Positions 4,804 through 61,046 of a stretch of 64,000 nucleotides of DNA are shown piece after piece. Position 1 is the stretch's first letter. Every line of letters starts with the position of its first letter. Position numbers and translations under genes: made by a program. The notes beneath the pieces are model-generated. The model was not told the origin of the DNA. It saw only the letters and a list, made by a program, of their open reading frames with translations, and ran no database searches. This DNA is from Shigella phage KPS64. The DNA lies in sequence record MK562502. One strand, 5' to 3'.

Positions 4804-4847
4804 CTTTTTATCTCTCTCAAAGTGGGGCTTTTCAGCCCCTAAAGTTG

Positions 4848-5747
4848 TTATTCAATATTTGCTACGGTCACTTGTGGGAAGTGGGAAAGACCACGGTCTT
4901 TTTCATCCCCGAGTGAGTTTGTAGTGTAGATATGGTCGATGCCATTGTCAAGAAGATTTTCAACACCTTTAGAGAAAATCCCATGAGTCACATACAGTTC
5001 TACACGTTCTGCTCCAGCTTCACGAAGATACTTTGCAGCCTCAATGAAGGTACGACCACCGTCACAGATATCATCCAGAATCATGACAGTCTTACCTGTT
5101 AAGTCTACATCATCAAGTATTCGCATACCAGTGATTTCACCAGTTTTCAGGTTTCGTACCTTAGCCATTGTAATGTAAGGTTTCTCAACCTCTTTAGCAG
5201 CCTCTTCAGTCTTCTTAGCTGCACCTGCATCTGGAGCCACTAAGTAATCAATGCGTGGGTCACTTGCAAAGTGGACTGCTGCCTCTTTTTGAGGGAGGTT
5301 GTAGAAGCTCTTAAACAAATTCTCTGCAACATTACTGTGAGTATCCAGAGCACATACTGCATCGAACTCCATAGCATTTACAAGATTTGCAAAGACTTTA
5401 AGTGCTGCTGCATCACCTTTAAACATGTGACGGTCATAGCGAGCATTTGGTAAGAATCCAAAGACAACAGTTTTCAGAGTTGCTTTCTGAGGAATCAAAC
5501 GGTCAATTGCTTCTTTAGCCATAGCCAATGCAAAGAGTGTGTCTTTGTCATAACCTTGTACAGTGAATATTACGTTTTCAATCTTACCAGCAGCATGTTC
5601 AGCAAAGTCTACTAAGTCTTCTGAGAAGTTACCACCAATCTCCCCAGAAGGGAACTGGATAATGTTGAAGGTCTCTTGATGAGAACCTTTGGAATTTGAA
5701 TTAAGTAGAACTCGAATAGTAGTTTTCATAATATCTCTCTCAGTCAA
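4848..5747 (-). CDS. ribose-phosphate pyrophosphokinase family protein (Prs-like; possible ADP-ribose pyrophosphokinase)
   Basis: 299-aa ORF; FPSGE, NARYDRH and ILDDICDGGRT segments match the Prs/PRTase type I fold. Confidence 0.7.
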   Translation of the reverse strand: MTERDIMKTTIRVLLNSNSKGSHQETFNIIQFPSGEIGGNFSEDLVDFAEHAAGKIENVIFTVQGYDKDTLFALAMAKEAIDRLIPQKATLKTVVFGFLPNARYDRHMFKGDAAALKVFANLVNAMEFDAVCALDTHSNVAENLFKSFYNLPQKEAAVHFASDPRIDYLVAPDAGAAKKTEEAAKEVEKPYITMAKVRNLKTGEITGMRILDDVDLTGKTVMILDDICDGGRTFIEAAKYLREAGAERVELYVTHGIFSKGVENLLDNGIDHIYTTNSLGDEKDRGLSHFPQVTVANIE

Positions 5748-8716: not shown

Positions 8717-8907
8717 ACGTTTTTTGTTAAGTCCTCGTCATACCATACCCCATTAGAACCTTGCCAAGACACAGTGTATTTATTTTCAGATACATGTTTG
8801 AGGACAGCCTCAAGTGTGCGATTAGACTTTCCTGCAACGAAAAGGTAAACCTTGCCAATTTTCAACATTTTATTATCTCCAATAAAAAGGTGATGTAAGC
8901 CTATCAA
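8686..8907 (-). CDS. hypothetical protein
   Basis: 73-aa ORF; start probably the internal MLKIGK. Confidence 0.3.
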   Translation of the reverse strand: MIGLHHLFIGDNKMLKIGKVYLFVAGKSNRTLEAVLKHVSENKYTVSWQGSNGVWYDEDLTKNVWKVYQEVTA

Positions 8908-24244: not shown

Positions 24245-26944
24245 ATGGACAATGTAGATTTCGAAAAATTACATTTGGTTGGTGATACAGAAACTGATGG
24301 GTTGCTCCTTGAGTTTACAAAAGCACACGTAATGGCTTTCGCAGACTATAAAGATGACAGTGACGAACCTGCTGTGTGGGTGTTCACTGATGAGCCTATT
24401 CTTGGTCACAAGTATACAAAATACATCAAAGGTGGTCTGCGTGAAGGTGTTGAGTTTGCACTGAAAGCTAAACGTCTTTGTATCCACAATGGTCTTGGTT
24501 ATGACTGGTGGGTGTTTAATCACATTGCACCTGACCTGTGGAACTTTGAGAATCCTAAGTGTAAACCTTGGAGTGACTTCTTTCAGGATTCACTTATCCA
24601 ATCTCGCGTACAGTGGATGGATAGACCTACGCCAAAAGGTTACAAAGGTGCTCATGGTTTGGCTGCATGGGGTGCTCGTGTAGGTGTCCGTAAACCAGAG
24701 ATTGAAGAGTGGGGTGTCTGGAATGCAGAGATTCTTACTCGTGTTGTAGAAGATATTAAGATTAACGCCAAAACTAAACGTGCTCTTGATAATGAGTACC
24801 TCAAGCTTAAGAAGTGTGGTGTTGACACTTATGAAACCTACATGCGAGCTAAAGAAACATCCTTCTGGATGAGTCAGCAAGCTATCAACGGTTGGAAAGC
24901 TGATGTAGAGCTTATGCAGTTCCACGTTAAAGAGCTTGACAAGTTAACTAATGAGTTGGCTGCTGAGGTTGAACCACACCTTCCACCAACTATTAAGACA
25001 AAAGGTAAAGTCACAGGTGAAGAATTTGCCAAGTCTTGGAATGAGTATGTAGATACATTTGGTCACGTTGACGGTTTAAAAAGGATTACCAAGTACCCTA
25101 AGACAAAGTATCGAGAACAGATGCGTGAAGGTGAGTTGAAGCAGTACCCTATCAAGCCATATGGTAAGCCAACCACAAAGATTTTTAATGTTGAGAAACG
25201 CAACTGCTACACCCCAACTAACACGGTAACTAAAGAAGAGTACCCTGAAGGTTTTGTAGCAATGAAAGATGCTCGTGCAGTTTGTAATGAACTGAATGAG
25301 AAGATTGGCAAGAAGTGTAAAGATTGGAAGCCAGTTAAGACTGTGAAAACTGTGAAGTACTACAACGTTCACGTTGTTAATCACTTTGAGTTAGAGTCTA
25401 GTCGCTACACTGGTTTGATTGATGCACCATTCACACCAATTGAGTTTGAAGTTTCACGAATGACTCAGGTAGCTGTGGTGAAGGATTACTTAAAATCCGT
25501 TGGCTGGATTCCTGATGATTGGAACTATAAAAAAGATTCTGATGGTCGTCCTATCAAGGTTTGCAGATTCAAAGACAACAAAAAGATGATTCGCAAACAT
25601 CCTAAGTGGGATGAGATGGTTGAGCGTTGTGGGTTGAACTATATTGAGCATGAAGGTGTCTATTACATCGAGCATAACTGGTCTGTTAAGAAGTACACAG
25701 ATGTGCTTGAGCCTTGCTTGATTAGGACTTCACCAAAGCTTACAGAGTCTTCTTATGATACAATCGAAGGTGAGCTTGGACAGAAGATTGCGAAGTACTA
25801 TACTTTGATGCACCGTCGCAGGACTATTGAGAACTCAAAGGATGATGAGAAAGGTTGGCTGAACCAGATTCGTCCAGATGGTCGTTTGAGTGCAGGTGCA
25901 ATGGTATTTGGTACTTCTACTGGACGTATGACTCAGTATGGTATTGTAAACGTACCTTCTGGTGCTGCCGTGTACGGTGAACCAATGAGGGCAGTGTGGA
26001 TTTGTGAAGAGGGAACCAACGTAGTATCTGTTGATATGAACTCTGCACAGCTTGTACTACTCTGTAACTTCATGGGTGATAAAGACTTCACCAAAGCGGT
26101 AACAGAGGGTAAAGAAGAGATTGAGTTTGTTCGTCAAGAGGATGGAAGATACTACTGCAAACACTTTGACCAGTATCTGAATCCAGAGATTGACAAGTAT
26201 CTGCGTTACGACTCTGAAAACGATTTGTACGTAGTTTACTCAGGTACTGATGCTCACACTCTGAACAGTATCTACTTCAGCCTTAATGATGAGCAAGATA
26301 TCTTGACTTGTCGTGCTACTCAGGATGAGAATCTTCTTCATGAGATTAGCAAGGGACGTAAGAAAGCTAAGAATGGTATCTATGCCCTGTTGTTCGGTGC
26401 AGGGGATGAGAAGTTTGCCAAGACAATTAAAGCAGCAACTACTCAGGAAGGTGCATTGACTAAGCAGACTTACTTTGTGCGTTTGCCGAAGATTAAGAAA
26501 CTGTTAGACAACTTGGAAGCTGATTTCAAAGCAACTAAGAAAGCACTTGAAGAGGTGTTTGGTAAAACTGCTGCAATCTCTAAAGGTGGTTTTGTGAAGG
26601 TTGCTGGGGCTTGGCTGTGGTGTAAGTCTCCACACAAACTCTTGAACTATTTGCTGATGGGTTCAGAAGCACAAGTTCAGAATGAAGCAATCAACCTTGC
26701 ATGTCGTAGAGCCTATGATGAAGGGTTGATGAAGCTGAATGGACGTAAGCCAGCTATTGGAGCTAGACTTCTTCTGGCATACCACGATGAAAATAGTTGG
26801 GAATGTCCAGAAAGTATGACTCAAGAGGTTAAAGCTATCACTGACTGGATGTACGGGCAGGCTTCTAAAAACCTTGGTCTAAGAAAAGAAACTATGGTTA
26901 CAGGTACTGGTAAGGTTGGTAAGAGCTGGTTGGAAGTGCATTGA
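24245..26944 (+). CDS. DNA polymerase, family A, with 3'-5' exonuclease domain
   Basis: 899-aa ORF; exo motif DTETDGL, pol motif A-like SVDMNSAQLVLL, motif B-like RKKAKNGIYALLFG, motif C-like AYHDE. Confidence 0.9.
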   Translation: MDNVDFEKLHLVGDTETDGLLLEFTKAHVMAFADYKDDSDEPAVWVFTDEPILGHKYTKYIKGGLREGVEFALKAKRLCIHNGLGYDWWVFNHIAPDLWNFENPKCKPWSDFFQDSLIQSRVQWMDRPTPKGYKGAHGLAAWGARVGVRKPEIEEWGVWNAEILTRVVEDIKINAKTKRALDNEYLKLKKCGVDTYETYMRAKETSFWMSQQAINGWKADVELMQFHVKELDKLTNELAAEVEPHLPPTIKTKGKVTGEEFAKSWNEYVDTFGHVDGLKRITKYPKTKYREQMREGELKQYPIKPYGKPTTKIFNVEKRNCYTPTNTVTKEEYPEGFVAMKDARAVCNELNEKIGKKCKDWKPVKTVKTVKYYNVHVVNHFELESSRYTGLIDAPFTPIEFEVSRMTQVAVVKDYLKSVGWIPDDWNYKKDSDGRPIKVCRFKDNKKMIRKHPKWDEMVERCGLNYIEHEGVYYIEHNWSVKKYTDVLEPCLIRTSPKLTESSYDTIEGELGQKIAKYYTLMHRRRTIENSKDDEKGWLNQIRPDGRLSAGAMVFGTSTGRMTQYGIVNVPSGAAVYGEPMRAVWICEEGTNVVSVDMNSAQLVLLCNFMGDKDFTKAVTEGKEEIEFVRQEDGRYYCKHFDQYLNPEIDKYLRYDSENDLYVVYSGTDAHTLNSIYFSLNDEQDILTCRATQDENLLHEISKGRKKAKNGIYALLFGAGDEKFAKTIKAATTQEGALTKQTYFVRLPKIKKLLDNLEADFKATKKALEEVFGKTAAISKGGFVKVAGAWLWCKSPHKLLNYLLMGSEAQVQNEAINLACRRAYDEGLMKLNGRKPAIGARLLLAYHDENSWECPESMTQEVKAITDWMYGQASKNLGLRKETMVTGTGKVGKSWLEVH

Positions 26945-26954
26945 TGGTGTTGAA

Positions 26955-27467
26955 ATGATTACAGAAATTCGTTTAAAGGAGCTTTTAGAGTACGACCCCG
27001 ATACAGGGGTCTTTACTTGGAAATTTAGAGAAGGTAATGCAAACTTTAACTCTAGATTTGGAGGTAAGAGGGCTGGAAACTATAGAACAAACACTGATGG
27101 TCACAAGTCTGTCCAATTGCTGATTGATGGAAGGAGTTACCAAGCAAATCGTTTAGTTATCTTGTATATGGATGGATACCTACCTGATAAAACCTTACAG
27201 GTTGACCACAAGAATTGTGATGGTTGGGATAATAGATATTTGAATTTGAGGGTTTGTACGGCTTCACAAAACTCTTGCAATCGGTCTAGAAAGTCCATAT
27301 CAGGTTTACCAAAAGGTGTACAGAAGATAGGGAAAAGGTTTAGGGCAGTGATTCGTTTACAAGGTAATAATTACCATCTTGGGATGTATGACACACCTGA
27401 AGAAGCCCACGAAGCTTACTGTGAAGCTGCTATAAAACTCCACGGAGATTTTGCAAAACTTAGTTGA
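26955..27467 (+). CDS. HNH homing endonuclease with AP2-type DNA-binding domain
   Basis: HNH core (VDHKNCDGWDNRYLNLRVCTASQN) and C-terminal AP2-like segment (YHLGMYDTPEEAHEAYCEAAIKLHGDFA). Start placed at the first in-frame ATG after the polymerase stop. Confidence 0.7.
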   Translation: MITEIRLKELLEYDPDTGVFTWKFREGNANFNSRFGGKRAGNYRTNTDGHKSVQLLIDGRSYQANRLVILYMDGYLPDKTLQVDHKNCDGWDNRYLNLRVCTASQNSCNRSRKSISGLPKGVQKIGKRFRAVIRLQGNNYHLGMYDTPEEAHEAYCEAAIKLHGDFAKLS

Positions 27468-27519
27468 CAAGGTGCTCATGGAAGAGTACCTTATACTATA
27501 TATTGTATAGGAGACTTGT

Positions 27520-27720
27520 ATGACTATTTCAGAAATTGAAGTTCAACTGCAATGTGCTGGATATTCTCAAAGTGAGATTGAGGCTATGTGCATCATCATT
27601 TGCAGTAGCCATAAGCACCTCAAGCTTTCTAATGAAAATCTTCGCAAGGTTGATATTTTTATTGCTGGAGGTAAGATTATCAAGGATAAGACAGGCTACC
27701 TTAAAGGTGAACATCTATGA
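27520..27720 (+). CDS. hypothetical protein
   Basis: 66-aa ORF preceded by TAGGAGA RBS. Confidence 0.45.
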   Translation: MTISEIEVQLQCAGYSQSEIEAMCIIICSSHKHLKLSNENLRKVDIFIAGGKIIKDKTGYLKGEHL

Positions 27721-27926
27721 GTCACCGTGGAAGAACTCATCTCGCCATGATGCAAGGTGCTTCAAAAGAGACTATCAAGAATCGGAAGAAAACTCTTTTT
27801 GACAGAATGAATAGACTCATTGATAATGCAAGCCTACCTAACTCTGAAAAGGTTTTCTTGAAAGGAAATATAAAGAGTATTGCACAGGAACTTATTGACA
27901 TTGAATTTTGGAGACACCAAAAATGA
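27717..27926 (+). CDS. hypothetical protein
   Basis: 69-aa ORF; ATGA start/stop overlap with the upstream gene. Confidence 0.45.
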   Translation: MSHRGRTHLAMMQGASKETIKNRKKTLFDRMNRLIDNASLPNSEKVFLKGNIKSIAQELIDIEFWRHQK

Positions 27927-28114
27927 CATACGAAGAAGCTCTTGAAGCTATGAAACAGGGCAAGAAAGTTCGAAATGAAAATTTCACATCTGATGAGTTC
28001 TTTGAAATGAAAGATGGAAAGGTTGTATGTGAAATGGGTTACCCAATGGCTGCATGGTACAAGGGGGAACCTTGGCAGAAAACTGGATGGAGTATCTTTA
28101 ATGAAACTCTATAG
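27923..28114 (+). CDS. DUF2829-like small protein (possible Tad2-type anti-Thoeris sponge)
   Basis: 63 aa from the ATG overlapping the upstream stop; MTYEEALEAMKQGKKVRNENF ... GEPWQKTGWSIF matches my recollection of the DUF2829 N-terminal motif. Confidence 0.45.
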   Translation: MTYEEALEAMKQGKKVRNENFTSDEFFEMKDGKVVCEMGYPMAAWYKGEPWQKTGWSIFNETL

Positions 28115-28233
28115 CATTTGGGGAAGAGTTGGTGAAGGTTATGACTGGACTCTTCTTAAAACAAATGTTAAAAGTAACGAGATAGCTTACTACAAAGTCT
28201 ATTACCATAAAACTTTTAGAGAGGTAGAGTATC

Positions 28234-28485
28234 GTGAGCAATAAAGAGCAAGAATCTTTATCAATTTTCAAGAATGAAGACAAATCAATAGCTTTTGTCT
28301 CAGAGGCTTGGTGCAGAGATTTGGGATATGATTGGTATCTTTTCTTATGCGCTAAGAAAGATGTTAAACCAGTTGATGAAACCCGATTCAAAGAACTGTA
28401 TAATATCTGCCAAGAGGGTTATGAAGAACATTACGAAGGTTCTTTGAATCCTGTAAATTCAAAAGCTTCAGACTTATTTTATTGA
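28234..28485 (+). CDS. hypothetical protein
   Basis: 83-aa ORF, GTG start with AGAGGTAGAG upstream. Confidence 0.4.
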   Translation: MSNKEQESLSIFKNEDKSIAFVSEAWCRDLGYDWYLFLCAKKDVKPVDETRFKELYNICQEGYEEHYEGSLNPVNSKASDLFY

Positions 28486-28495
28486 GAGGTTTAAA

Positions 28496-28741
28496 ATGTT
28501 AAAATTATTGATACCAGCTTTAGTAGTCTTACTGGTGGGGTGCAACCCTTCTTATGAGAATAAGGATGCCTCTTACAGACTTCCTCCAGAAATGCAAGAC
28601 TGCAAGATTTATAAGCTTAATGGTGATGCCATTAGCAGGGATGTTATTGTAGTTCGCTGCCCAAATTCTCAGACTACAACTTCTTACAAGTATGGGAAGA
28701 ATAGTCAGTCACACACCACAGTTTTTGATGGAGGATATTGA
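28496..28741 (+). CDS. putative lipoprotein
   Basis: Signal peptide with lipobox (MLKLLIPALVVLLVGC); RBS GAGAGG upstream. Confidence 0.5.
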   Translation: MLKLLIPALVVLLVGCNPSYENKDASYRLPPEMQDCKIYKLNGDAISRDVIVVRCPNSQTTTSYKYGKNSQSHTTVFDGGY

Positions 28742-28742
28742 T

Positions 28743-28949
28743 ATGCAGGTTCTGGTAAATTTTATCTATAAGTATGACGTTGTTCACTCAACTACAACTG
28801 TAGCACAACGTAACCCAATAGTGCCACGAGAAGGTGAATGGGTAAGGATTGATGGTTGGACTTACACTGTAGAGAATATCATTCATAAGTTTGATGTTTG
28901 TGGAGACACACAAGTTATTGATGTAGAAATTGGTGGGAAACGTAAATGA
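28743..28949 (+). CDS. hypothetical protein
   Basis: Track ORF 28692..28949 trimmed to the Met preceded by GGAGG. Confidence 0.4.
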   Translation: MQVLVNFIYKYDVVHSTTTVAQRNPIVPREGEWVRIDGWTYTVENIIHKFDVCGDTQVIDVEIGGKRK

Positions 28950-30046
28950 CAATTCTGTACAAACAAAATAAAGATGGTTCTTTCAACGTCTGGTCATGTG
29001 TTGCTGTAGGTGATAAAGTCGTCACAACTTATGGTAAAGAAAATGGCAAGATGATGTTTGAAGAGTACACAGCAGAACCTAAGAACATCGGTAAAAAGAA
29101 TGAGCGTAATGCTGAACAGCAAGCTCTCTTTGAAGTTGCTGCTAAGTACAAGAGGCAGGTTGACCGTAAAGGATATGCTTACACAAAATCTGAAGCAGAG
29201 AATGTTGAGAAGGTTGGTGTACAGCTTGCTCAGGATGCTTCCAAGATAAGTCACAAGAAGTATCTGGTATTCCCTGCCGATGCTCAACCTAAACTTGATG
29301 GTGTTCGTTGCAGGATTTCAAGAGATGTTGACTCAGAAAGTTTTACGGCATATTCTCGTGAGAACACGGTATACAACATTCCTGTAGAGTTGATTCCTGA
29401 TGTTCTTCTTATGCTGAAACTGCACAAAGATGTTGAGGATTTCGACGGGGAGATTTATGCTCATGGTTGGGACTTGGAAGATATTGTATCTATGATTAAG
29501 AATGCTGACAATCCAGACCGTCACCTTCTTAAATTCTACTGGTATGATATCTGTGACAAGACTAAATCTTGGCCTGAGCGTCGTGAAGTTATTGATAATT
29601 CACCAATCGTTGAACTCGGTGATGCTTGCAGGGTTGTACCTGTTCAGACAATCCGTGTTAACTCTTGGGAAGAATTTGATAATGCTCATGACAACTGGGT
29701 TAAACTCAAGTTTGAAGGGGCAATGTATCGGTCAATCTCACCAGATTCGTTCTATGAGTGTGGTCATCGCTCTTACTTCCTGATTAAGCACAAGAAGATG
29801 CACACACAGGAATTTAAAGTAACTGGTGTAAAGACTGATAAACGTGGTCATGGTAAGTTCGTTGTAGAGACTCTTCCTAACGTCTTTGTAGATGTTTCAT
29901 GGAAAACTACACACGAGAAGAAAAAGTATCTTGCTGAACATCCTGAAGAGTTTATCGGGAAGCCTTTAACGGTTCAGTTCCAGAAGATGACTCGTAAGGG
30001 GTCTTTACAGTTCCCTGTTGGGCTTGTTATACGAGATTATGAATAG
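28946..30046 (+). CDS. ATP-dependent DNA ligase
   Basis: 366-aa ORF with adenylation motif I KLDGVRC, motif DFDGEIYA and FLIKHKK. Confidence 0.75.
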   Translation: MTILYKQNKDGSFNVWSCVAVGDKVVTTYGKENGKMMFEEYTAEPKNIGKKNERNAEQQALFEVAAKYKRQVDRKGYAYTKSEAENVEKVGVQLAQDASKISHKKYLVFPADAQPKLDGVRCRISRDVDSESFTAYSRENTVYNIPVELIPDVLLMLKLHKDVEDFDGEIYAHGWDLEDIVSMIKNADNPDRHLLKFYWYDICDKTKSWPERREVIDNSPIVELGDACRVVPVQTIRVNSWEEFDNAHDNWVKLKFEGAMYRSISPDSFYECGHRSYFLIKHKKMHTQEFKVTGVKTDKRGHGKFVVETLPNVFVDVSWKTTHEKKKYLAEHPEEFIGKPLTVQFQKMTRKGSLQFPVGLVIRDYE

Positions 30047-30054
30047 AGGTTAGC

Positions 30055-30204
30055 ATGTTTAGCGCAATTATCCTGTTTGTTTTTGTTGTTTTATCATTAT
30101 CTTACTTCATAAGTAAACTGTTAAGCATAACATACAAATCAGCCTTAGCCCTTACTCTGTTATCATTTGTAGTAAATGCAGTAGTCAGAGAATTTTTAAT
30201 ATAA
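30055..30204 (+). CDS. hypothetical 49-aa double-pass membrane peptide
   Basis: Hand translation MFSAIILFVFVVLSLSYFISKLLSITYKSALALTLLSFVVNAVVREFLI; RBS GAGG 6 nt upstream. Below the track cut-off. Confidence 0.35.
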   Translation: MFSAIILFVFVVLSLSYFISKLLSITYKSALALTLLSFVVNAVVREFLI

Positions 30205-30209
30205 AGTTG

Positions 30210-30237
30210 TTGACATAGAAAATTTGGTGAGTATACT
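30210..30237 (+). promoter_or_regulatory. sigma70-type promoter
   Basis: TTGACA (30210-30215), 16-nt spacer, TATACT (30232-30237); would start transcription just before repeat module A1. Confidence 0.55.
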
Positions 30238-30267
30238 GAGCAGCATAAACCAACGGGTACTCACCAG

Positions 30268-30412
30268 CATCACTTAAGAGTCTTTTAAGAGGGTTTTTAA
30301 GTGATGCTCGGTAAGGTTCGGTTGGGTGTGGTATGGTCTGGTATGGCTGGGTTGGGTCTGGTCCGGTTTGGTGAGGGTAGTTAGTCTCAGCTACATTAAA
30401 ATGAGACTCACC
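30268..30412 (+). repeat. repeat module A1: 10-bp-stem hairpin + GGT-rich tract + terminal stem-loop
   Basis: Inverted repeat CATCACTTAA...TTAAGTGATG (30268-30306); about 70 nt of GGT/GGTT repeats; stem-loop AGTCTCA-GCTACATTAAAA-TGAGACT. Confidence 0.7.
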
Positions 30413-30583
30413 TTTTTAAAAGGTCTTTAAAAGGGTCTTTTAATGAGGTTTCGCTAGGTAGGGTAGTGTCCGGTTGGGTCTGGTAAGGTCAGGTTAGGTA
30501 AAGTGAGGTAAGGGTGGATGGTAGTAGCCACGTTAAAAATCTACCAAGTTTCTAAAGAGTCTTCTGTTGAGGGTTCTTTATAA
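30413..30583 (+). repeat. repeat module A2: iteron-like direct repeats + GGT-rich tract + terminal stem-loop
   Basis: AAAAGGTCTTT AAAAGGGTCTTTT direct repeat; GGT-rich tract; stem-loop GGTAGTAG-CCACGTTAAAAAT-CTACC; then AAGAGTCTTCTGTTGAGGGTTCTTT. Confidence 0.7.
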
Positions 30584-30603
30584 ACAACTTAACAATAAAC
30601 TAA

Positions 30604-31209
<606 letters not shown>

Positions 31210-31211
31210 TT

Positions 31212-31652
31212 ATGAATACAAAAGCATTAGCAGCAAAGTTTAGTTACGGTGATACTGTATCACACTCTGAGATGGACACCTTCTTAGGTATTGTGAAGCC
31301 GACTTATCAAGGTGACATTGTTAAGTACGAAGATGAAATGAAGGCTTACGCACTTACACGCCTAAATCGACTTGAGAAGTTTATTGAGAAGCTTCTTAAA
31401 GAAGAGAAGATTTATCTGGTTACTTCAATGGGTGTTGGTTATCGTGTGGTGGAACCTAAACATCAAGCAACTATTGCAAAACGTAAAATGTCTAGTAAGA
31501 TTGGTCGTGCTTTAAAACAAGCCACTCAAGCGATTGAGAATGTGAACACTATGGCACTTAGTCATCAAGAACGTTCACGACTGATTGAACAGCAAAACCA
31601 TTTAGCTGCTATGAAAGCTAACATTAACAAGCAACGTAGAAAACCTTTCTAA
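31212..31652 (+). CDS. hypothetical protein with basic C-terminus (cassette gene 2)
   Basis: 146-aa ORF, 2 nt after the upstream stop; Lys/Arg-rich C-terminal third. Confidence 0.5.
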   Translation: MNTKALAAKFSYGDTVSHSEMDTFLGIVKPTYQGDIVKYEDEMKAYALTRLNRLEKFIEKLLKEEKIYLVTSMGVGYRVVEPKHQATIAKRKMSSKIGRALKQATQAIENVNTMALSHQERSRLIEQQNHLAAMKANINKQRRKPF

Positions 31653-31663
31653 GTTGACTAGGC

Positions 31664-31687
31664 AGCCTCTTCGGAGGCTCCTTTTTA
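31664..31687 (+). terminator. rho-independent terminator (plus strand)
   Basis: Hairpin AGCCTC-TTCG-GAGGCT followed by CTTTTT, right after the cassette. Confidence 0.5.
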
Positions 31688-31827
31688 AAAGGTCTTCAAA
31701 GAGGGTCTTTTAATGAGGTCTGTCATGGTGATGTTTGGTAGGGTTTGGCAAGGTTCAGTCAGGTAAAGTGTGGTCTAGTAAGGTAGGGTGTGGGTAGTTA
31801 ATCGGAGCTACATAAAAATTCGATTAC
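31682..31827 (+). repeat. repeat module B1 (counterpart of A2)
   Basis: TTTTTAAAAGGTCTTCAAAGAGGGTCTTTTAATGAGG, nearly identical to the A2 start; GGT-rich tract; stem-loop AATCG-GAGCTACATAAAAATT-CGATT. Confidence 0.7.
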
Positions 31828-31960
31828 ATCACTTAAGAGTCTTCTAAGAGGGTTTTTAAGTGATGTTTGGTGGTGGTTTGGTAATGTGAGGTAAGATGTG
31901 GTATAGTAAGGCGGGGTTTGGTATGGAAGGATGGCAGTAGCCTTATAAAAAATCTGCCAA
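31827..31960 (+). repeat. repeat module B2 (counterpart of A1)
   Basis: Hairpin CATCACTTAAGAGTCTTCTAAGAGGGTTTTTAAGTGATG (one substitution versus A1); GGT-rich tract; stem-loop GGCAG-TAGCCTTATAAAAAAT-CTGCC. Confidence 0.7.
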
Positions 31961-32005
31961 ATAAGCTATAAAATCTGTTGACAAGTCAGGTGTTATAGCT
32001 TATTT
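31961..32005 (+). promoter_or_regulatory. promoter with flanking 10-bp inverted repeat (operator-like)
   Basis: ATAAGCTATA (31961-31970) and TATAGCTTAT (31993-32002) are perfect reverse complements bracketing TTGACA (31977-31982); TATTTT -10-like hexamer follows. Confidence 0.4.
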
Positions 32006-32046
32006 TTATACTCAAATATATACAAAATTTTATATAGGAGATAGTT

Positions 32047-32427
32047 ATGAAAAAGTTACTTGTTGGTGTCCTTGCTATTGGTATGAGTTTTAGTGCAGCA
32101 GCTATGAAGATGCCTGAAGCAAACTTTAATGGTGTCGCTTTAGAATCTTGTAAGATTGTACAGAAAATCGCTTCAAATGCTGGAGAGTTGACTAAACCGT
32201 TGTCTGCTCAGACTGTTCAAGAAATGACTGATAAGATGGTTGACTACAACTACCATTTTATGGGAGATTACTATGACAGATTAGCAGATGAGATGGTTAC
32301 TCAGAACGTTGACCTTCTTGATAGTAAAGGTATCGAAACTGTAGAAGATGTGAAAGATAATTTTATGCGTGAGTCTTTCAAAGGTGTTCAATACTTTATT
32401 GAAAATCGTCACTGCACGGGTTTATAA
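32047..32427 (+). CDS. putative secreted/periplasmic protein
   Basis: 126-aa ORF with signal-peptide-like N-terminus (MKKLLVGVLAIGMSFSAAA); RBS AGGAG upstream. Confidence 0.5.
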   Translation: MKKLLVGVLAIGMSFSAAAMKMPEANFNGVALESCKIVQKIASNAGELTKPLSAQTVQEMTDKMVDYNYHFMGDYYDRLADEMVTQNVDLLDSKGIETVEDVKDNFMRESFKGVQYFIENRHCTGL

Positions 32428-32429
32428 TC

Positions 32430-32633
32430 ATGAAGAAGAACATCTGTAGAACAGACTATGGTGAAGTAGTCAATGATGACGGAGTAGTTATTTACAGAGT
32501 TTGGGCAAGTGATTACTCAACCGTTGTAGAGTCTTTAGATAACTACATCAATGGGACTCGTGAAAACGTCAGAGCAACTAATCTTGATTCGTTAATAGAC
32601 ACTTCTCGAAAACGGAGAAAGAAAGATGAATGA
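32430..32633 (+). CDS. hypothetical protein
   Basis: 67-aa ORF. Confidence 0.4.
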   Translation: MKKNICRTDYGEVVNDDGVVIYRVWASDYSTVVESLDNYINGTRENVRATNLDSLIDTSRKRRKKDE

Positions 32634-32925
32634 AGTCTTTGACCCTTATGCACCTCAAGATTCTTGGGAGGCTGATAGAGAGGCTGAAATGGAGAGTTAT
32701 ATCTGTCCAATGGATATAGAAGAGATGAAAGATTTTGTATCTTTCAGATTCTCTAAAGAGATTGAGAAGCTAAAACTTTCTCAGGCTCAAGTAGCAACTG
32801 TTTGTGAAATCTCACAGAGTCGTGTGTCAAATATCATTAACGACCCTCAAAAGATTTCTTTAGAGTACATGCTTAATGCTTGTACAAAACTTGGTGTAAA
32901 TTTTAACTTAAGGCTGGCAGATTAA
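32626..32925 (+). CDS. putative helix-turn-helix DNA-binding protein
   Basis: C-terminal LSQAQVATVCEISQSRVSNII resembles an XRE-type HTH. Confidence 0.45.
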   Translation: MNEVFDPYAPQDSWEADREAEMESYICPMDIEEMKDFVSFRFSKEIEKLKLSQAQVATVCEISQSRVSNIINDPQKISLEYMLNACTKLGVNFNLRLAD

Positions 32926-32926
32926 T

Positions 32927-33286
32927 ATGAAACGTGAAAATGCAATCTTTAACGATAACTTTGCAATTGGCTTCTATGGTAAACCAACTCCAGCAGAGAA
33001 ACTTTATGGTAATGCAATTCTGGAGACCTTGAAAGAGGTTTACACAACTGGTGGTATGAAGCATACTGAAGCAAACCGTGTAAGAGGTTATATGGCAATT
33101 GGCTCTGCAATCTCTAACATCAAACTTGAAACTACAAGTGCTAAAAAGGTACGAGACCACTTCATCAAAGAGTTGTCAGAGAACCTAGATGGTGTTGATG
33201 TTAAGGCTGTCTGGTTAGATGTTGATGGTCACAACTACACAACTTTTGTGTTTAAAAATGAGGATATCAAATGTCTCTTCCCTTAA
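32927..33286 (+). CDS. hypothetical protein
   Basis: 119-aa ORF. Confidence 0.45.
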   Translation: MKRENAIFNDNFAIGFYGKPTPAEKLYGNAILETLKEVYTTGGMKHTEANRVRGYMAIGSAISNIKLETTSAKKVRDHFIKELSENLDGVDVKAVWLDVDGHNYTTFVFKNEDIKCLFP

Positions 33287-33774
33287 AACTCGATTTATAC
33301 TTTGGGTACAGTGTATTGCAAGGCAGCATACTGTCACTACCAAAGTCAGATTATCGTTGTGATTTAGGTTCTGTGAAACGTGCATCACACTTTAACAACA
33401 ACATCTTAGGCTTGCAGACACTTCACAGGTGGCTTGAGGAAGATGGACGGTTGAATGAATATCTTCACCAACTAGAACTAGCCAAAGAAGAAGGGCATAT
33501 GGGTTGGAATTTACTACCCCATCTGTACAAACCTGCAAGTCCTATGGAGATACGCTATAACGAACAAGCAATTGATAGCTATAACAAATATAATATAACT
33601 ATTGGCTCAAGACCTTGGAAGGAGTATGGAAAGCTCCGTGAAATCATTATACAGACCATTGGAAAGCGTGTAGCAAAAGGTATTGCTTATGATGAAAAGG
33701 TTGACTGGAATACACAAAAGTGTATAAAATTCTTCAAGTACGATAATGACAAAGATACTTTTGTAGAGGTTTAA
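33271..33774 (+). CDS. hypothetical protein
   Basis: 167-aa ORF. Confidence 0.45.
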   Translation: MSLPLKLDLYFGYSVLQGSILSLPKSDYRCDLGSVKRASHFNNNILGLQTLHRWLEEDGRLNEYLHQLELAKEEGHMGWNLLPHLYKPASPMEIRYNEQAIDSYNKYNITIGSRPWKEYGKLREIIIQTIGKRVAKGIAYDEKVDWNTQKCIKFFKYDNDKDTFVEV

Positions 33775-33775
33775 C

Positions 33776-34291
33776 ATGAAAATTGGAATTACCCTTTGCC
33801 AGCCTGAAGCAGAGTTCTTGAAATCAATGTTGTCTGAGCATATGAAGTCCACAAATCATACTGAGAAGACATTCTTGATTGACACTAACTATGATGCAGG
33901 AACTATTGAGTTCATTGATGAAGACACTGCTGACTCTCTGTGTGTTCTTCCTGCTCACTTATTTACTCCAGAGCTACGGGATAGTCGTTCTATTGAAGTT
34001 AATCTGGAGCCAAGTATCGAACTGTACTCAGATACACAGTATCCAAGAAGCTTTAAAGCATTGCTAAACATCTTTATAGCTGATATTGTAGAGATTGTTA
34101 AGCAGACTGAAGGTGGTCATGTAGTAACTGCTGAGTGTGAACAAGGCACTATCAAACTGACAGGTGACTTTGGTTCTATGAGTTTCTTAGACTTTGTTCC
34201 AAAACACTTTGAAGATTTCCTGTCAAGTGAAGTTGATGACCTTGATTTCATACTAAAATTTGAACGCACTTTTAAGGTAAACAAAAAATGA
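33776..34291 (+). CDS. hypothetical acidic protein
   Basis: 171-aa ORF. Confidence 0.45.
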   Translation: MKIGITLCQPEAEFLKSMLSEHMKSTNHTEKTFLIDTNYDAGTIEFIDEDTADSLCVLPAHLFTPELRDSRSIEVNLEPSIELYSDTQYPRSFKALLNIFIADIVEIVKQTEGGHVVTAECEQGTIKLTGDFGSMSFLDFVPKHFEDFLSSEVDDLDFILKFERTFKVNKK

Positions 34292-34560
34292 AAATCTTAA
34301 GCGGAGTATCACAGTGTTACATGAATAATGGTGAGCCAGTTAAATGCTGCCATTGTGGAGGTGAGAACTTCCAAGGTGAAGTTTCAGAGATTGTCTCTGG
34401 CAATATCGCTGAAGAGTACACCCGTTGCTGTGGATGTGGAAAGATTTTATCTTTTTGGGCTTATGGAAGTTATGAACCACAACCTCACCTTATTTACCAT
34501 CCAAACAGGATTGTGAAGCGTGTTCTGAACTGGTTCATTATCAAAGGATTTACAAAATGA
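34288..34560 (+). CDS. hypothetical zinc-ribbon protein
   Basis: 90-aa ORF with CCHCGG ... CCGCG cysteine pairs. Confidence 0.45.
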   Translation: MKILSGVSQCYMNNGEPVKCCHCGGENFQGEVSEIVSGNIAEEYTRCCGCGKILSFWAYGSYEPQPHLIYHPNRIVKRVLNWFIIKGFTK

Positions 34561-35102
34561 TTAAGTTAATTTTTGCAAGTGGTATTAACGGGGAGTTTGG
34601 CACAGCTACTGGAATGCCTTGGCCTCGTAATAAACAAGATATGGCAGAGTTTAAGAAGCAGACTGTTAACCAGTTAGTCTTGATGGGTAGCGAAACTTGG
34701 AAGACTCTTGGGAGCAAGCCTTTGCCAAACCGTGAGAACCTTGTCTTGACAAACTCTCTTGACTTTTATGGTCTGGATTTTAAAGATGACTCTTATTGTA
34801 AAGCAAGAGTTAAGCCTGAAGCTTTTGGGGCTTTCCTGAAGTATATTGATAGCTCTATTGATGAAGATGTTTTAGTAATCGGTGGAGCCAATATCTTAAT
34901 CTCAGCTTTGCCGTATGCTGACGTAGTTTTCCACAGTGTTATTAAGGAAGTTACTGAAGAGGCTACTGTCAAGCTACCTTATGAGGGTTTCTTCCAGTAC
35001 TTGTATGACACAGAATTATTTGCTAAAGTACAGTCCAAACCCTCAGAAGATAAGTCTGTGGTTTTTGATACCTATGTTCCACAAGTAAGAGGACGTTTCT
35101 AA
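34557..35102 (+). CDS. folA: dihydrofolate reductase
   Basis: 181-aa ORF; N-terminus IFASGINGEFG..GMPWP and LVLMGSETW match DHFR motifs; directly upstream of thyA. Confidence 0.8.
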   Translation: MIKLIFASGINGEFGTATGMPWPRNKQDMAEFKKQTVNQLVLMGSETWKTLGSKPLPNRENLVLTNSLDFYGLDFKDDSYCKARVKPEAFGAFLKYIDSSIDEDVLVIGGANILISALPYADVVFHSVIKEVTEEATVKLPYEGFFQYLYDTELFAKVQSKPSEDKSVVFDTYVPQVRGRF

Positions 35103-35103
35103 T

Positions 35104-36003
35104 ATGTCACAAGCAGATGTAAGCTACAAAGCTATTTTAAACCATGTTTTATCAGTTGGTGAGTTGCGTAAAACCAGAACTGGCTCAGTGATTTCGACCT
35201 TTGCTCCACCTGAGTTCCGTTTTGATATGCGTAGTGGATTTCCATTAATCACCTCAAAACAAACATTTATGCGTCAAGTCCTCGGTGAAGCATTATGGTT
35301 CATGAACGGTGAAAACCAACTAGGCCATTTGCGTTACAGAACTTGGGGAGAGAACGACGGAGAGCGTTGGACTATCTGGACAGATGATTTTAAACGTTGG
35401 TTGAAAACAACCTATGCTACAGAGAATGATTGGCTGGAGGACGCTGGAGGAAGAATCTATGGAGTCCAATGGAGAGCCTACGAAGGTCATGGTGGCGTTG
35501 TTGTAGACCAGTTGAGTAATCTTGTAGAGAAGATGAGAAAGTCTCCTACAGACCGTTACATGCTCGTTAACGCATGGAATGCAGCAGATATCTCAAGTAA
35601 CTCTATGGCATTAGCACCTTGTCATGTACTTTTTCAGATTTATATCTCGAACACTAATGAGGTGGATTTGAAATGGTATCAGCGCTCTTGTGATACATTC
35701 TTAGGGTTACCATTTAACATTGCTTCCTATGCCTTTATCTTGGAGGTGTTGTGTAAACTGACGGGATATACACCGCGATATCTGGTAGGGACTTATGGTG
35801 ATACTCAAATCTATCAGAACCATATGTCGCAGGTTTTTCAGCTTCTTGGCAATGAAGAGTTTCCAGCACCTAAGTTTGAAATTCATCAAGATTTAAAGTC
35901 TCTTGAAGATTTGAGACATATGACAGCAGATGACTTCCTAGGTGGGTTGAAAGGGTATAAACATGCTGGTAAGATTGAAGCACCTTTATCAGTAGGTAAG
36001 TAG
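35104..36003 (+). CDS. thyA: thymidylate synthase
   Basis: 299-aa ORF; FDMRSGFPLITSK, WFMNGE and active-site ALAPCHVLFQ segments. Confidence 0.9.
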   Translation: MSQADVSYKAILNHVLSVGELRKTRTGSVISTFAPPEFRFDMRSGFPLITSKQTFMRQVLGEALWFMNGENQLGHLRYRTWGENDGERWTIWTDDFKRWLKTTYATENDWLEDAGGRIYGVQWRAYEGHGGVVVDQLSNLVEKMRKSPTDRYMLVNAWNAADISSNSMALAPCHVLFQIYISNTNEVDLKWYQRSCDTFLGLPFNIASYAFILEVLCKLTGYTPRYLVGTYGDTQIYQNHMSQVFQLLGNEEFPAPKFEIHQDLKSLEDLRHMTADDFLGGLKGYKHAGKIEAPLSVGK

Positions 36004-36006
36004 AAA

Positions 36007-36033
36007 CAAAAAAGGCTCCCGTAAAAAGGAGCC
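36007..36033 (-). terminator. terminator in convergent gap
   Basis: Hairpin GGCTCC-8nt-GGAGCC with a T-run on the minus strand, between thyA (+) and the spanin-like gene (-). Confidence 0.5.
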
Positions 36034-36039
36034 TTAGAA

Positions 36040-36414
36040 TTATTTCTTTTTAGTGCTTTGGGTATTTTGTTCTGTAATTGCTTGCAAAGCTGATACAGAT
36101 TGTGCTAAGTTGTTAACACTGTCAGAGAACTTATCAAGGGTCTTAGTCAACTTAGCGTTTTCTCCCTTAACATTCTCTAGCTGAACTTTCTGGTTCTCCA
36201 TCCCTAATTGTAGGAGCTTCATATCAGATTGTAAGTCACGAATAGCTGAATAGTTACCTTTTGAGTAACCATCCAACTGCTGTAACTTATTTGTGATAGA
36301 CACTTCCTGTTTACCATCAGAGACCTGCATTGTAGTGTACATACCAATTACACTGAAAATACCTACAACGATTGCACCAATATTATTCTTAAAAGCATCT
36401 TCAAGCCACTTCAT
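36040..36414 (-). CDS. membrane-anchored coiled-coil protein (i-spanin-like)
   Basis: 124-aa ORF; N-terminal TM helix (IGAIVVGIFSVIGMY) then coiled-coil region. Confidence 0.4.
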   Translation of the reverse strand: MKWLEDAFKNNIGAIVVGIFSVIGMYTTMQVSDGKQEVSITNKLQQLDGYSKGNYSAIRDLQSDMKLLQLGMENQKVQLENVKGENAKLTKTLDKFSDSVNNLAQSVSALQAITEQNTQSTKKK

Positions 36415-43341: not shown

Positions 43342-46102
<2,761 letters not shown>

Positions 46103-46103
<1 letters not shown>

Positions 46104-48340
46104 TATTCATCCTCTGGGTAGCTAGAGTTTAACAGAATATCTTCCTGACTCTTATCAGTGATATCCACCATCTTAGTAGCAATCTGCTTACCATCCAGAT
46201 TAAAGGAAACGTGAAGCGTCTGCTTAGTTTGCAATGGTAGTCCAGAAGGAGTCATCATCATAGGTGTCTGGTTAAACTTGTTTGCAAAGTTATTTAGAGA
46301 CTCAGACAGATTGTTCATGATAATATCCCAATTTGACAAACCATTATCAACTCTCTGAATATTTCCAGAAGTGTCTGTGGTATATTGTGCAAACTGAAGT
46401 TGTCCATTCTGGTCAAAGAACATTGGACGTTTTGGATTAGTGATTCCTGAGATAGCTTCATTGAAAGGATTAGGTGTGTTAACCTCGTTAAATCTCTTTC
46501 CAGCATTCTTGTCAACTGAACCAGATAACATTAATGCAGAACCACCTACACCAAGAGCCATTCTGGTTGCTGATACACCAGCCGTTGTAGCTGCTGTTTC
46601 TGCTGCTGTAGTTAATCCAAACTTCTGTGCAATCTTAGCTAAGATACCTTCTTCAAAGATACTCTTGACAAATGCTACAGTACCACCAAAGATTTTAGCG
46701 ACTTTTGTAATAGCTGCAATTGAGACACCAATAGCGGTGAACGTAGCAACTAACTCAGCAGAATCCTTGATTAGTTTCTGTTGACTAGCATCTAATTCCT
46801 TGAAATAACCCATTGAGGTGTAGTACAATGAAGAAATGCGGTACATGATATCTGTCACGAAGTCTAGGAGGTTACTAGCACCTTTTAAAAGGTAACCAAT
46901 ACCTGTACCAAGCGCTTCAGATGTACCAAGGGAACCTTGCAAGAACATTGCAACTGAGTTAGAGAGTTGTGAAATACCTTCGCTAGAGTTGTTGAAGAGT
47001 GCTACAAGGGTGTTATCCCACATTGCCTTTGCTTGACCCATAGAGGTAGCTGTCTGCTTAGAAACTGCATTCATACCACCTGCTGCTTCAACAAGCTCTC
47101 TCATTTTTTCTGAGACTTTTGGTAGAACGTCTTTTGCAAGAAGTTTACCATCTTTCATCAGCTTATCAAGTTCTTGTGGGGTTTTACCAATAGCATCAGA
47201 GAATAACTGAACAGCACCTGCCAAACGGTCACCTAACTGACCACGAAGTTCTTCAGCCTGAATCTTACCTTTAGATGCCATTTGCTGGAAAGCAACCATG
47301 ATACCTTTCAAGTCTTCATCAGAAGCACCACGAATACGTGAGAACATAGCAGCATTCTTATAGAACTCCTGAGTACCTTGGAAACCTAACTCTGGTTGAG
47401 CACCAGCAGCGAAGTTTGAGTACTGCTTCATAGTGTCTGTGTAGTTCTGACCAATCTGGTGAGAGAACGTAGCAGCGAACATTCTAGCTTGCTGTGTATC
47501 CCCTCCAAAGATAGCTGTTGAGGCTAACTGTGCAGACTGTCTCTTTACACCTGCATCAATAGTCTTCTGAGCTAATTCCAGCATAGCATACGCTGAAACA
47601 AAACCACCTACAAGCTGTCTTAGTGAAGAGTTTGCTCTGTCTTGTAACCAAGCTGACTCTCTGACTGCCTTAAGTCTAGCATTTTCTGCAATAACCCAAC
47701 GTTTGGTAGTGTCAATGAGTTTCTTGACTTCCATCTCATACTCACCAACTTTACCACTACCTTTGTACTTATTATAGATTCCTTGTAAGCTTCCTCTGAA
47801 GGAAGTAGCCATTTGGTTACCTTGTCCACCAATTGTTTCAAGACGACGAGTCAAACCAGAATAGAAGTTGTTATTAAACATTCTTTCCATTTGTCTTTGA
47901 GCAATATCAGGTCTAACTCTAGGTGAACCACCACCTCCAACCGGAGGGATAGTATTACCACGGCCTCTACCAACTCCACCACGAACATTGACTTTACCTT
48001 CAACATTCATAGCTTGTCTTAGAGCCTTATTAATTTCTTTGGCTGTTTTCTTACCCTGTGTTTCTAATCTACGAAGTGATTTTACACCTTGTGAATCTAA
48101 ATTCATAGCATTGTTTAGGGATTTATTGATTCTGCCTGAAGCAGTCTGAGCGTTTTTTACAAGTCTGTTTAGAGCGTCTTGTGAACTTCTATTAGGCTTC
48201 ACATCAAAGGCTTTATTGATATTGCGTTCGATACGTTGAGCAGACTGCATAGCCATTTTCTCAACTCTTTGCAAACCCTTAACAACCTTTTCACTGAATC
48301 CAAGTTCAACAATAAAACTATCAACTGTATATTGTGCCAT
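46103..48340 (-). CDS. tail tape measure protein
   Basis: 745-aa ORF; helical Ala/Gln/Lys-rich sequence with Gly-rich segments; follows chaperone-size ORFs and tube/sheath. Confidence 0.7.
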
Positions 48341-60036: not shown

Positions 60037-60112
60037 TGGAGTATCGGAAGGGACTCGAACCCTCATAAGCCTGTTTTGCAGACAGGAACATAACCATTTC
60101 TGACACCGACAC
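60037..60112 (-). tRNA. tRNA-Cys (anticodon GCA)
   Basis: Hand-folded cloverleaf; anticodon loop CTGCAAA on a perfect 5-bp stem; T-loop TTCGAGT; 3' CCA encoded. Confidence 0.55.
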
Positions 60113-60118
60113 ATAATT

Positions 60119-60211
60119 TGGAGGAAGATACCAGACTTGAACTGGTACGCCGATTTCTCGGTTACTGGCAGTTTAGCAAACTGCTCCCTTACCTTTTAGG
60201 GTTAATCTTCC
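60119..60211 (-). tRNA. tRNA-Ser (anticodon GCT), type II
   Basis: 93 nt; perfect acceptor stem GGAAGAT/ATCTTCC; anticodon loop TTGCTAA; long variable arm with CCGA-GAAA-TCGG stem; 3' CCA encoded. Confidence 0.65.
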
Positions 60212-60212
60212 A

Positions 60213-60947: not shown

Positions 60948-60963
60948 TATGCACCTATAAAGT

Positions 60964-61040: not shown

Positions 61041-61046
61041 TTAAAT

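Follow-up and report, generated by a model that had tools for sequence, protein, structure and literature searches.

The interval 27520-34560 of a 64,000-nucleotide stretch of Shigella phage KPS64 (record MK562502; this whole stretch is called the window below) very probably holds a complete type II Viral Interference Programmable Repeat (VIPR) locus, lying within a transcription unit that extends from the DNA polymerase gene to the DHFR gene. The elements of the locus succeed one another in the order promoter, vrRNA1, vrRNA2, vipr, vap1, terminator, vrRNA3 and vrRNA4. VIPR systems are described in a preprint dated 25 June 2026, in which phage SUSP1 (Ounavirinae) serves as the experimental model (bioRxiv 10.64898/2026.04.26.720920). 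The preprint describes the locus in a phage whose VIPR genes are nearly the same, so it is an already known system and not a new kind of system; the window provides an independent, sequence-only recovery of its repeat code, its fold and its satellite targets. An earlier note on the same DNA, which had seen here a block of small early genes with possible roles in host takeover and anti-defence, missed the pair of genes for proteins of 195 and 146 residues, two gaps of about 400 bp with RNA genes, and a gene for a ligase of 366 residues.

The preprint presents Vipr as a minimal RAMP protein and Vap as an accessory protein, the type II vap product being a predicted DNA-binding protein. Each vrRNA has 9-16 YNNGG repeats and, behind them, a structured tail; pairing of the NN dinucleotides with double-stranded DNA, in which one base is skipped from each dinucleotide to the next, leads to transcriptional repression. 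For SUSP1, expression of the vrRNAs, their binding to and co-purification with Vipr, and repression of targets are reported (bioRxiv 10.64898/2026.04.26.720920). In the window phage, Vipr, as a minimal RAMP protein resembling Cas7, would likewise bind vrRNAs of ~100 nucleotides and hold the conserved GGY of each pentamer; the two variable bases would pair with double-stranded DNA, leaving one unpaired base between successive dinucleotides, and the bound complex would block transcription. We infer these steps from SUSP1 through the 98-99% identity of the proteins; what the window itself shows is the anatomy of the locus, the RAMP fold of Vipr, the protein identity to SUSP1, and target matches seen only with one skipped base. 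It has been proposed that CRISPR RAMP effectors descend from VIPR, and that VIPR represents a new means to program the recognition of DNA.

Anatomy of the VIPR locus

Two gaps of about 400 bp free of open reading frames (ORFs), 30205-30606 and 31653-32046, are full of structured repeats. Each is made of two copies of a unit of ~140 nucleotides, giving four units, all on the + strand, and such tracts occur in the 64-kb window at these four places only. From 5′ to 3′, a unit comprises a hairpin of ~20 bp, a tract rich in G and T in which GGT recurs every 5 nucleotides, and a pseudoknot tail. vrRNA unit 1 (30262-30412, +) has 14 GGYNN repeats between its 5′ hairpin and its tail; the hairpin contains G.U pairs and folds with a free energy of -21.5 kcal/mol (z -6.2). 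Unit 2 (30409-30548, +; nhmmer E 4e-34) has 13 repeats. Units 3 (31678-31830, +) and 4 (31821-31962, +), both called with a hidden Markov model (HMM) of the unit in nhmmer, have 15 repeats and an irregular start followed by ~10 regular repeats, respectively. Upstream of unit 1 lies a sigma-70-like promoter, TTGACA-16-TATACT (30210-30237, +), which agrees with 11 of 12 consensus positions and is a consensus match only. An intrinsic-terminator-like hairpin, AGCCTCTTCGGAGGCT followed by a T run, stands after vap1 (31664-31679, +), and a second sigma-70-like promoter, TTGACA-17-TATTTT (31978-32006, +; 10/12 positions), precedes the gene of a 126-residue protein.

The units belong to a large family. 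In a comparison of the window with 30 related loci (L-numbered), the unit HMM recovered 99 units (89 unique) in 27 of them, always on the + strand and at these two sites. The length of the repeat tract ranges from 45 to 95 nucleotides and is a multiple of 5 in 85/89 units. Over 1052 in-frame pentamers, the first position is G in 82% (essentially never C), the second G in 98% and the third T in 89% or C in 11%, the last two positions being nearly free. The preprint's system is recognized by at least four tandem YNNGG repeats with conserved GGY and hypervariable NN; the window units have ~10-15. Their 3′ tail is structured as in the SUSP1 clade, an H-type pseudoknot in which two interleaved stems both covary over four tail types (GTAG/CTAC, GTGG/CCAC and AAGG/CCTT in stem 1; AGTCTCA/TGAGACT, GGTAG/CTACC, GGCAG/CTGCC and AATCG/CGATT in stem 2). 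A scan of 27000-36200 against Rfam, with E up to 1, gave no match. GGT-rich tracts on the minus strand of some loci were also considered and are not vrRNAs, as they correspond to glycine codons in the tail-fibre gene.

Long hairpins precede the vrRNAs at 30266-30308, 30413-30449, 31682-31719 and 31825-31865 (+). Their stems form two covarying families, CATCACTTAAGAG.../...TTTTTAAGTGATG or CCTYWTTAAAAG.../...CTTTTAATGAGG, with G.U pairs included, and the loop carries a 24-nucleotide insertion in some relatives. This 5′ hairpin, of which no description was found in the accessible text of the preprint, could be a processing signal of the RNase III type. A sigma-70 promoter inside each hairpin was considered and is unlikely, because in some units the 24-nucleotide insertion separates the putative hexamers.

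Between the two gaps lie vipr (30622-31209, +; 195 residues, or 200 from an alternative GTG start at 30607) and vap1 (31212-31652, +; 146 residues), which starts 3 nucleotides after the end of vipr. Vipr is identical to SUSP1 ALH47069.1 at 193/195 residues (99%) and Vap1 to SUSP1 ALH47068.1 at 143/146 (98%), so that a close relative of the characterized Vipr stands next to a vap gene; the DNA of the pair is 95% identical to that of SUSP1 and the synteny is alike. Vipr has a RAMP fold, with a C-terminal motif conserved across 34 homologs.

The likeness to SUSP1 extends to the surroundings. In both phages, the locus sits between the ligase gene and the gene of the 126-residue protein, has vrRNAs with GGY/NN repeats and a pseudoknot tail, and matches the same E. 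coli satellite. On the contig of SUSP1 (L012), the unit calls gave one vrRNA upstream and three downstream, which is the count given in the preprint, whereas the window has two and two. The guide set also differs, vrRNA3 and vrRNA4 being without counterpart in the 30 loci sampled, and the host range of the window phage lineage is Shigella and Citrobacter.

Comparison with the Cas7 proteins of class 1 CRISPR-Cas systems (Csm3, Cmr4, Csf2) shows a shared RAMP/RRM fold with a putative C-terminal glycine-rich loop in Vipr and, by the mechanism given in the preprint, a periodic binding of guide RNA in which some guide bases are kept from pairing. Unlike in Cas7 systems, no CRISPR array, cas1/cas2 or other Cas subunit is found near vipr. 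The VIPR period is 5 nucleotides with 3 unpaired bases, against 6 nucleotides with 1 for Cas7, and Vipr is a single-RRM protein of 195 residues encoded by a virulent phage, with a sequence identity to Cas7-type proteins of 9-15%.

Predicted targets in Escherichia coli satellites

The predicted targets of the guides are satellite phages of ~11 kb integrated in Escherichia coli chromosomes. A search of 5426 E. coli genomes with the baseplate gene of the window (45297-46103) found a chromosomal homolog, 73-77% identical, in 473 of them. Eight of these satellite-bearing genomes were scanned for targets. Their islands, ~11 kb long, encode recombinases, tape-measure and baseplate proteins and, in most cases, a DNA methyltransferase; the satellite in L040 carries WP_096972664.1 and WP_096972663.1, accessions that the preprint cites. 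Two of the satellites, L040 (2913-3000, -) and L041 (3020-3113, -), have a vrRNA-like unit of their own (nhmmer E 2e-13 and 5e-15, respectively); satellites that encode their own vrRNAs are remarked upon in the preprint (bioRxiv 10.64898/2026.04.26.720920).

When 85 guides were applied to the eight satellite loci under the one-nucleotide-skip rule of the preprint, with a threshold of at least 80% NN match, 123 matches were obtained, coming from 51 of the guides. Control skips of 0, 2 and 3 nucleotides gave 3, 0 and 2 matches, respectively, in the same satellites. Natural DNA is matched with a skip of one nucleotide and hardly at all with other spacings, as is characteristic of VIPR. In a scan covering five loci, all 89 matches (89/89) fell within the satellite islands and none in the flanking chromosome.

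Three of the four window guides have strong matches. vrRNA2 agrees at 23/26 NN positions with L038 4317-4354 and with L067 at 4118, the site in L038 being located upstream of the gene of a satellite helix-turn-helix (HTH) protein (4439-5380). vrRNA3 agrees at 27/30 NN positions, its first 11 dinucleotides perfectly, with the start of the tape-measure gene (L038, L067 and L069, at 8774-8817). The best site of vrRNA4, 42 nucleotides inside the tape-measure gene of L068 (at 8774), scores 18/20; four further satellites score 17/20 at this offset. At the coding targets of vrRNA3 and vrRNA4, the skipped base coincides with the wobble position of the codon. Among the 30 related loci, neither of these two guides has a similar one.

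Several points weigh against the assignment of the locus and of its targets. The eight genomes scanned are a small sample of the 473 that bear satellites. vrRNA1 reaches at best 21/28 in the eight satellites, below the 80% threshold, at a weaker site within a small hypothetical satellite gene; its ortholog in phage Sf18, one repeat longer, reaches 25/30 at the same site. vrRNA4 agrees at 16/20 NN positions with the phage's own tape-measure gene (window 48270-48298, -). Scans of IMG/VR for the exact one-nucleotide-skip patterns of vrRNA1 and vrRNA2 found nothing; exact patterns were the wrong tool here, because natural targets carry 1-3 mismatches. The PHROG families of the small ORFs around the locus are, except for that of the HTH protein, of unknown function. 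The preprint is without peer review, and that KPS64 expresses the RNAs, assembles them with protein and represses targets is deduced from likeness to SUSP1.

The self-match of vrRNA4 has the same 42-nucleotide offset from the ATG as its 17-18/20 satellite matches.

The short guide of vrRNA1 raises the question of whether the locus is an inactive remnant, with guides that have decayed or hosts that offer no suitable targets. One repeat shorter than its Sf18 ortholog, this guide falls below the threshold; vrRNA4 starts irregularly at its 5′ end, and related phages have lost vipr-vap1 altogether. Against these signs, both proteins are intact, with 98-99% identity to the functional Vipr and Vap1 of SUSP1, and vrRNA2, vrRNA3 and vrRNA4 have strong satellite matches. 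That vrRNA3 and vrRNA4 are unlike any guide in the 30 loci suggests recent guide turnover rather than decay, and we regard a remnant as very unlikely.

The G/T repeats could also be read as elements acting at the DNA level, such as an R-loop/G-quadruplex replication origin, a recombination hotspot or an antisense Rho-loading site, and not as guide RNAs. The base composition of the non-template strand in the tracts (45-49% G, 3-10% C) would suit such a role, as would their position in the replication-gene cluster downstream of a promoter-like site and the fact that they bracket a gene pair that relatives have or lack as one block. A strict GGY frame with free NN, lengths quantized in steps of 5 nucleotides and covarying stems that include G.U pairs point instead to a protein-bound RNA, and the NN code fits satellite genes only with one skipped base. 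Moreover, near-identical SUSP1 units are reported to be transcribed and to co-purify with Vipr (bioRxiv 10.64898/2026.04.26.720920); units probably do recombine with one another, as a side effect. A DNA-level role is therefore hardly credible. The readings of the tracts as an R-loop/G-quadruplex origin, a TRAP-like protein sponge, a primase-site array, an antisense rut site or recombination cassettes like PeSL of T4 were all dropped, given that the NN code matched satellite genes.

Distribution of the cassette and orphan guides

Among the 30 related loci, vipr and vap1 are either both present or both absent, and they are present in 19. Where present, the two proteins are 96-100% identical, whereas neighbouring genes fall to 32-90%. 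Three states of the locus occur: empty (L003, L005 and L015); an array by itself, with 1-2 units, in eight loci (L008, L009, L018, L023 and L027-L030); or two genes flanked on each side by an array, as in the window and 20 other loci. The solo units look like chimeras that combine an upstream-type 5′ hairpin with a downstream-type tail, which fits a loss of vipr-vap1 through recombination between the flanking vrRNA units. The three locus states, the conservation of the protein genes amid diverged neighbours, the 5′ hairpins and the orphan guides directed at vipr that are considered below were not found described in the accessible text of the preprint.

In a wider phage collection, 117 records contain the gene pair at a DNA identity of 90-99.4%, and in all of them (117/117) it is labelled hypothetical or left unannotated. 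For the annotation of Felix O1-like phages, the lesson is that 'empty' 400-bp gaps beside a hypothetical protein of 195 residues are guide-RNA genes.

Three distant homologs of Vipr (~40% identity) come from a Rhodococcus integrative island, skin-metagenome phages and another phage. In each case, the vipr homolog precedes a vap homolog, a GYRVV motif being common to the partners, and the locus is flanked by GG arrays with a period of 5 nucleotides, of the form (GGCNN)n in high-GC hosts. As distant homologs keep both the vap partner and the GG arrays, the association between the protein and the pentamer array is ancient. In L031 (9110-9660, the Rhodococcus island) and L033 (7600-7950, the skin-metagenome phages), each vrRNA with GGCNN repeats has a T-arm-like hairpin in its tail, formed by a covarying stem of 5-6 bp and a UUCGAUU or UUCGACU loop, within an acceptor-like helix. 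ARAGORN calls two of these tails 'tRNA-???', and with the Rfam tRNA model the score is 24.3 bits, below the gathering score of 29. P0044, a homolog from marine sediment, corresponds to X0TDZ5 rather than to X1U2U4, the seed of the preprint.

Eight relatives have no vipr anywhere on their contigs, yet have vrRNAs. Two of them, L023 (9166-9303) and L030 (9166-9294), carry one orphan vrRNA each, whose guide matches vipr itself with the exception of the terminal AT, the commonest dinucleotide beside the tail. The guide of L023 matches 20/20 in the vipr genes of L010, L011, L021 and L026, and 19/20 at window position 31090-31118 (+); that of L030 matches 16/16 at window position 30658-30680 (-). 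In both matches, the skipped base is a codon wobble position. Tentatively, some relatives devoid of VIPR may thus carry guide-only 'anti-VIPR' RNAs that use the Vipr of a co-infecting phage against its own vipr gene, a possibility to which we give less than even odds. If this were true, the vipr-vap1 cassette, placed between recombining vrRNA units, would itself be a mobile element over which Felix O1-like phages contend, and the vipr gene of the window phage would be a predicted target of the orphan guides.

The small ORFs and the Tad2-like protein

The interval 27463-35000 is ~98% identical to Shigella phages Sf18 and Sf17 (Ounavirinae, Mooglevirus) and matches 259 phage records in total, mostly at 80-90% identity; its sequence assigns the window to Mooglevirus, among the Felix O1-like myoviruses. 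The block belongs to a + strand unit (24245-36003) that runs from the DNA polymerase to thymidylate synthase, with - strand genes on either side, as also visible in the GC skew. It is bordered on the left by the DNA polymerase (24245-26944, +) and an HNH-AP2 endonuclease (26916-27467, +; Pfam HNH_3 E 3e-11, plus AP2), and on the right by DHFR (34557-35102, +) followed by ThyA (35104-36003, +). Of the 18 protein genes in 27520-34560, ~15 are small ORFs. All the small ORFs can be placed in PHROG families (E 4e-7 to 1e-107), which excludes chance ORFs among them. Pfam recognizes only four things in the interval, a DNA ligase, an XRE HTH protein, a near-threshold Tad2-like match and the neighbouring DHFR, and the NCBIfam search of the ORFs yielded nothing meaningful. 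Across the 30 related loci, the ORFs of 66, 68, 126, 67, 99 (HTH), 119, 171 and 90 (zinc) residues are core; those of 69, 63 (Tad2-like), 47, 83, 81 (lipoprotein), 49 and 167 residues, together with the 195/146-residue pair, are accessory.

The observation behind the earlier note therefore holds in part. A block of ~15 small ORFs, all with phage relatives, does lie between the polymerase/HNH and DHFR/thyA genes; its ORFs are packed on the + strand, yet the tight coupling claimed for them is broken by the two ORF-free gaps (30205-30606 and 31653-32046), and the size range of 48-171 residues omits the 366-residue ligase (28946-30046) and the ORF of 195/200 residues (30607/30622-31209). The label 'early' is an inference; in the homologous unit of Felix O1 (ORFs 80-96), expression of most genes peaks at 25 min, though transcription of ORFs 96, 101 and 105 within 5 min is reported (PMC3185647).

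The interpretation, namely that the block consists mainly of small host-takeover or anti-defence proteins, with a lipoprotein and a secreted protein in superinfection exclusion or envelope remodelling, is only partly supported, and we consider it rather unlikely as a whole. The idea of conflict genes stands insofar as VIPR and a Tad2-like candidate are in the block, and falls for the ORFs that had been singled out; VIPR is RNA-guided and directed at a satellite rather than the host. Accessory distribution, typical of conflict genes, is displayed by the Tad2-like ORF (5/30 loci) and by those of 83 (~10/30), 167 (8/30) and 49 (9/30) residues, and both a lipobox and a signal peptide can be read in the sequence. 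The lipoprotein and the secreted protein are nevertheless without informative relatives: searches of Pfam, NCBIfam and PDB sequences returned nothing that bears on superinfection exclusion. The homology check against anti-defence families in Pfam, NCBIfam and PHROGs singled out the Tad2-like ORF of 63 residues and no other, and one housekeeping gene, the DNA ligase, was found in the block.

The case for anti-defence comes closest at the 63-residue ORF (27923-28114, +), a truncated Tad2-like (DUF2829) protein. Its Pfam PF11195 score of 24.5-24.9 bits (E 3e-5) is under the gathering score of 25, and the alignment spans only profile positions 1-40 of 73. HMMER retrieved 155 relatives from among 1.8 billion representative proteins; of 50 tested, 15 match PF11195 at E ≤0.01 and none scores better than the window protein. 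The structure predicted by AlphaFold2 (AF2), with a predicted local distance difference test (pLDDT) score of 94.1, was compared with the PDB by Foldseek: Tad2 or ModTad2 structures take all of ranks 1-9, with query-normalized template-modelling (TM) scores of 0.44-0.71, and later matches have a probability ≤0.1. A broader sequence profile also reached three Tad2 structures, weakly (E 0.14-1), through N- and C-terminal motifs; with a narrow profile, Tad2 was lost and spurious LIM-domain matches appeared instead. As in Tad2 of SPO1 (Gp34.65, PDB 8SME/8SMF), an N-terminal helix motif EAxxAMKxGKKV and a W-containing strand motif at the C terminus are present, and the fold matches Tad2 structures only. 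In contrast to Tad2 proteins (88-101 residues), the ORF has 63 residues, 26 fewer than SPO1 Tad2 (89 residues), and its shortness means that part of the loops forming the dimer interface and ligand pocket in SPO1 Tad2 (PDB 8SME/8SMF) must be missing. The model supports a Tad2-like fold, and the protein is on that ground a candidate anti-Thoeris sponge.

The predicted lipoprotein (28496-28741, +; 81 residues, phrog_902 E 5e-17, 23/30 loci) does have the lipobox given in the earlier note. Read by eye, its sequence begins with MLKLLIPALVVLLVG followed by C16, the lipobox LVG|C conforming to [LVI][ASTVI][GAS]C, with Asn at +2. It is without match in Pfam, NCBIfam and PDB sequence searches, and PF16225, a precomputed tag on its relatives, was not reproduced in our own Pfam scan with E up to 10. 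Small lipoproteins of coliphages, such as Llp of T5 and Cor of phi80/N15, act in superinfection exclusion. Like these, the window has a small lipoprotein gene away from the lysis genes, here in a virulent phage; unlike them, its product has no sequence similarity to anything of known function in Pfam, NCBIfam or PDB.

The 126-residue ORF (32047-32427, +; phrog_4332) indeed begins with a signal peptide, MKKLLVGVLAIGMSFSAAA|M, also read by eye. It is found in all related loci, at identities down to 32%, and Pfam and PDB searches gave no informative match. The HTH protein was likewise well predicted: it has 99 residues (32626-32925, +), is of XRE type (Pfam HTH_3 E 2.8e-8) and belongs to phrog_1373 (transcriptional regulator). 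Several zinc-ribbon proteins had been announced, and the interval contains one candidate (34288-34560, +), a Cys-rich protein of 79-90 residues with a CCHC...CCGC motif (phrog_2993), which starts at 34321 in the Sf18 annotation and has a weak NCBIfam match to ECs_2282 CxxC (E 0.023).

The DNA ligase (28946-30046, +; 366 residues, ATP-dependent) is a plain housekeeping gene, annotated as ligase in Sf17/Sf18. It comprises the adenylation domain (DNA_ligase_A_M, PF01068, E 2e-8, over the cut-off), the KxDG motif as QPKLDG, and an OB domain (PF14743, E 1.6e-4, under its cut-off).

The other ORFs are all on the + strand, most of them of unknown function. Ahead of the ligase come those of 66 residues (27520-27720; phrog_4230 E 3e-35; gp25 of Sf18), found in 30/30 related loci at identities down to 33%; 69 residues (27717-27926; phrog_5180 E 4e-46; ~20/30 loci); 47 residues (28101-28244; gp22 of Sf18; phrog_2381 E 2e-20); 83 residues (28234-28485; phrog_9065 E 4e-49), an accessory one; and 68 residues (28743-28949; phrog_4427 E 2e-45; gp19 of Sf18), found in all 30 loci with a match in L003 that is only partial. 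A hydrophobic accessory ORF of 49 residues (30055-30204; phrog_22006 E 4e-7) follows the ligase. Further downstream are ORFs of 67 residues (32430-32633; phrog_4473 E 3e-39), 119 residues (32927-33286; phrog_4116 E 4e-67; all related loci), 167 residues (33271-33774; phrog_9143; accessory) and 171 residues, the last acidic (33776-34291; phrog_4422) and without match in a PDB sequence search. PDB sequence searches with the lipoprotein and the ORFs of 126, 167 and 171 residues returned matches at chance level only.

Outside the block, the HNH-AP2 ORF (26916-27467) resembles homing endonucleases and overlaps the 3′ end of the DNA polymerase gene. Sf17/Sf18, otherwise ~98% identical, lack this ORF, and other relatives carry versions of varying identity, a patchiness that suggests a mobile insertion. 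A bidirectional terminator-like hairpin (AAGGCTCC...GGAGCCTT, 36012-36035) separates thyA (+) from the convergent holin gene (-) and corresponds to the element listed as t79/t80 in Felix O1 (PMC3185647). Finally, as is typical of Felix O1-like phages, tRNA genes are clustered, 20 of them lying at 60037-63942 on the - strand.

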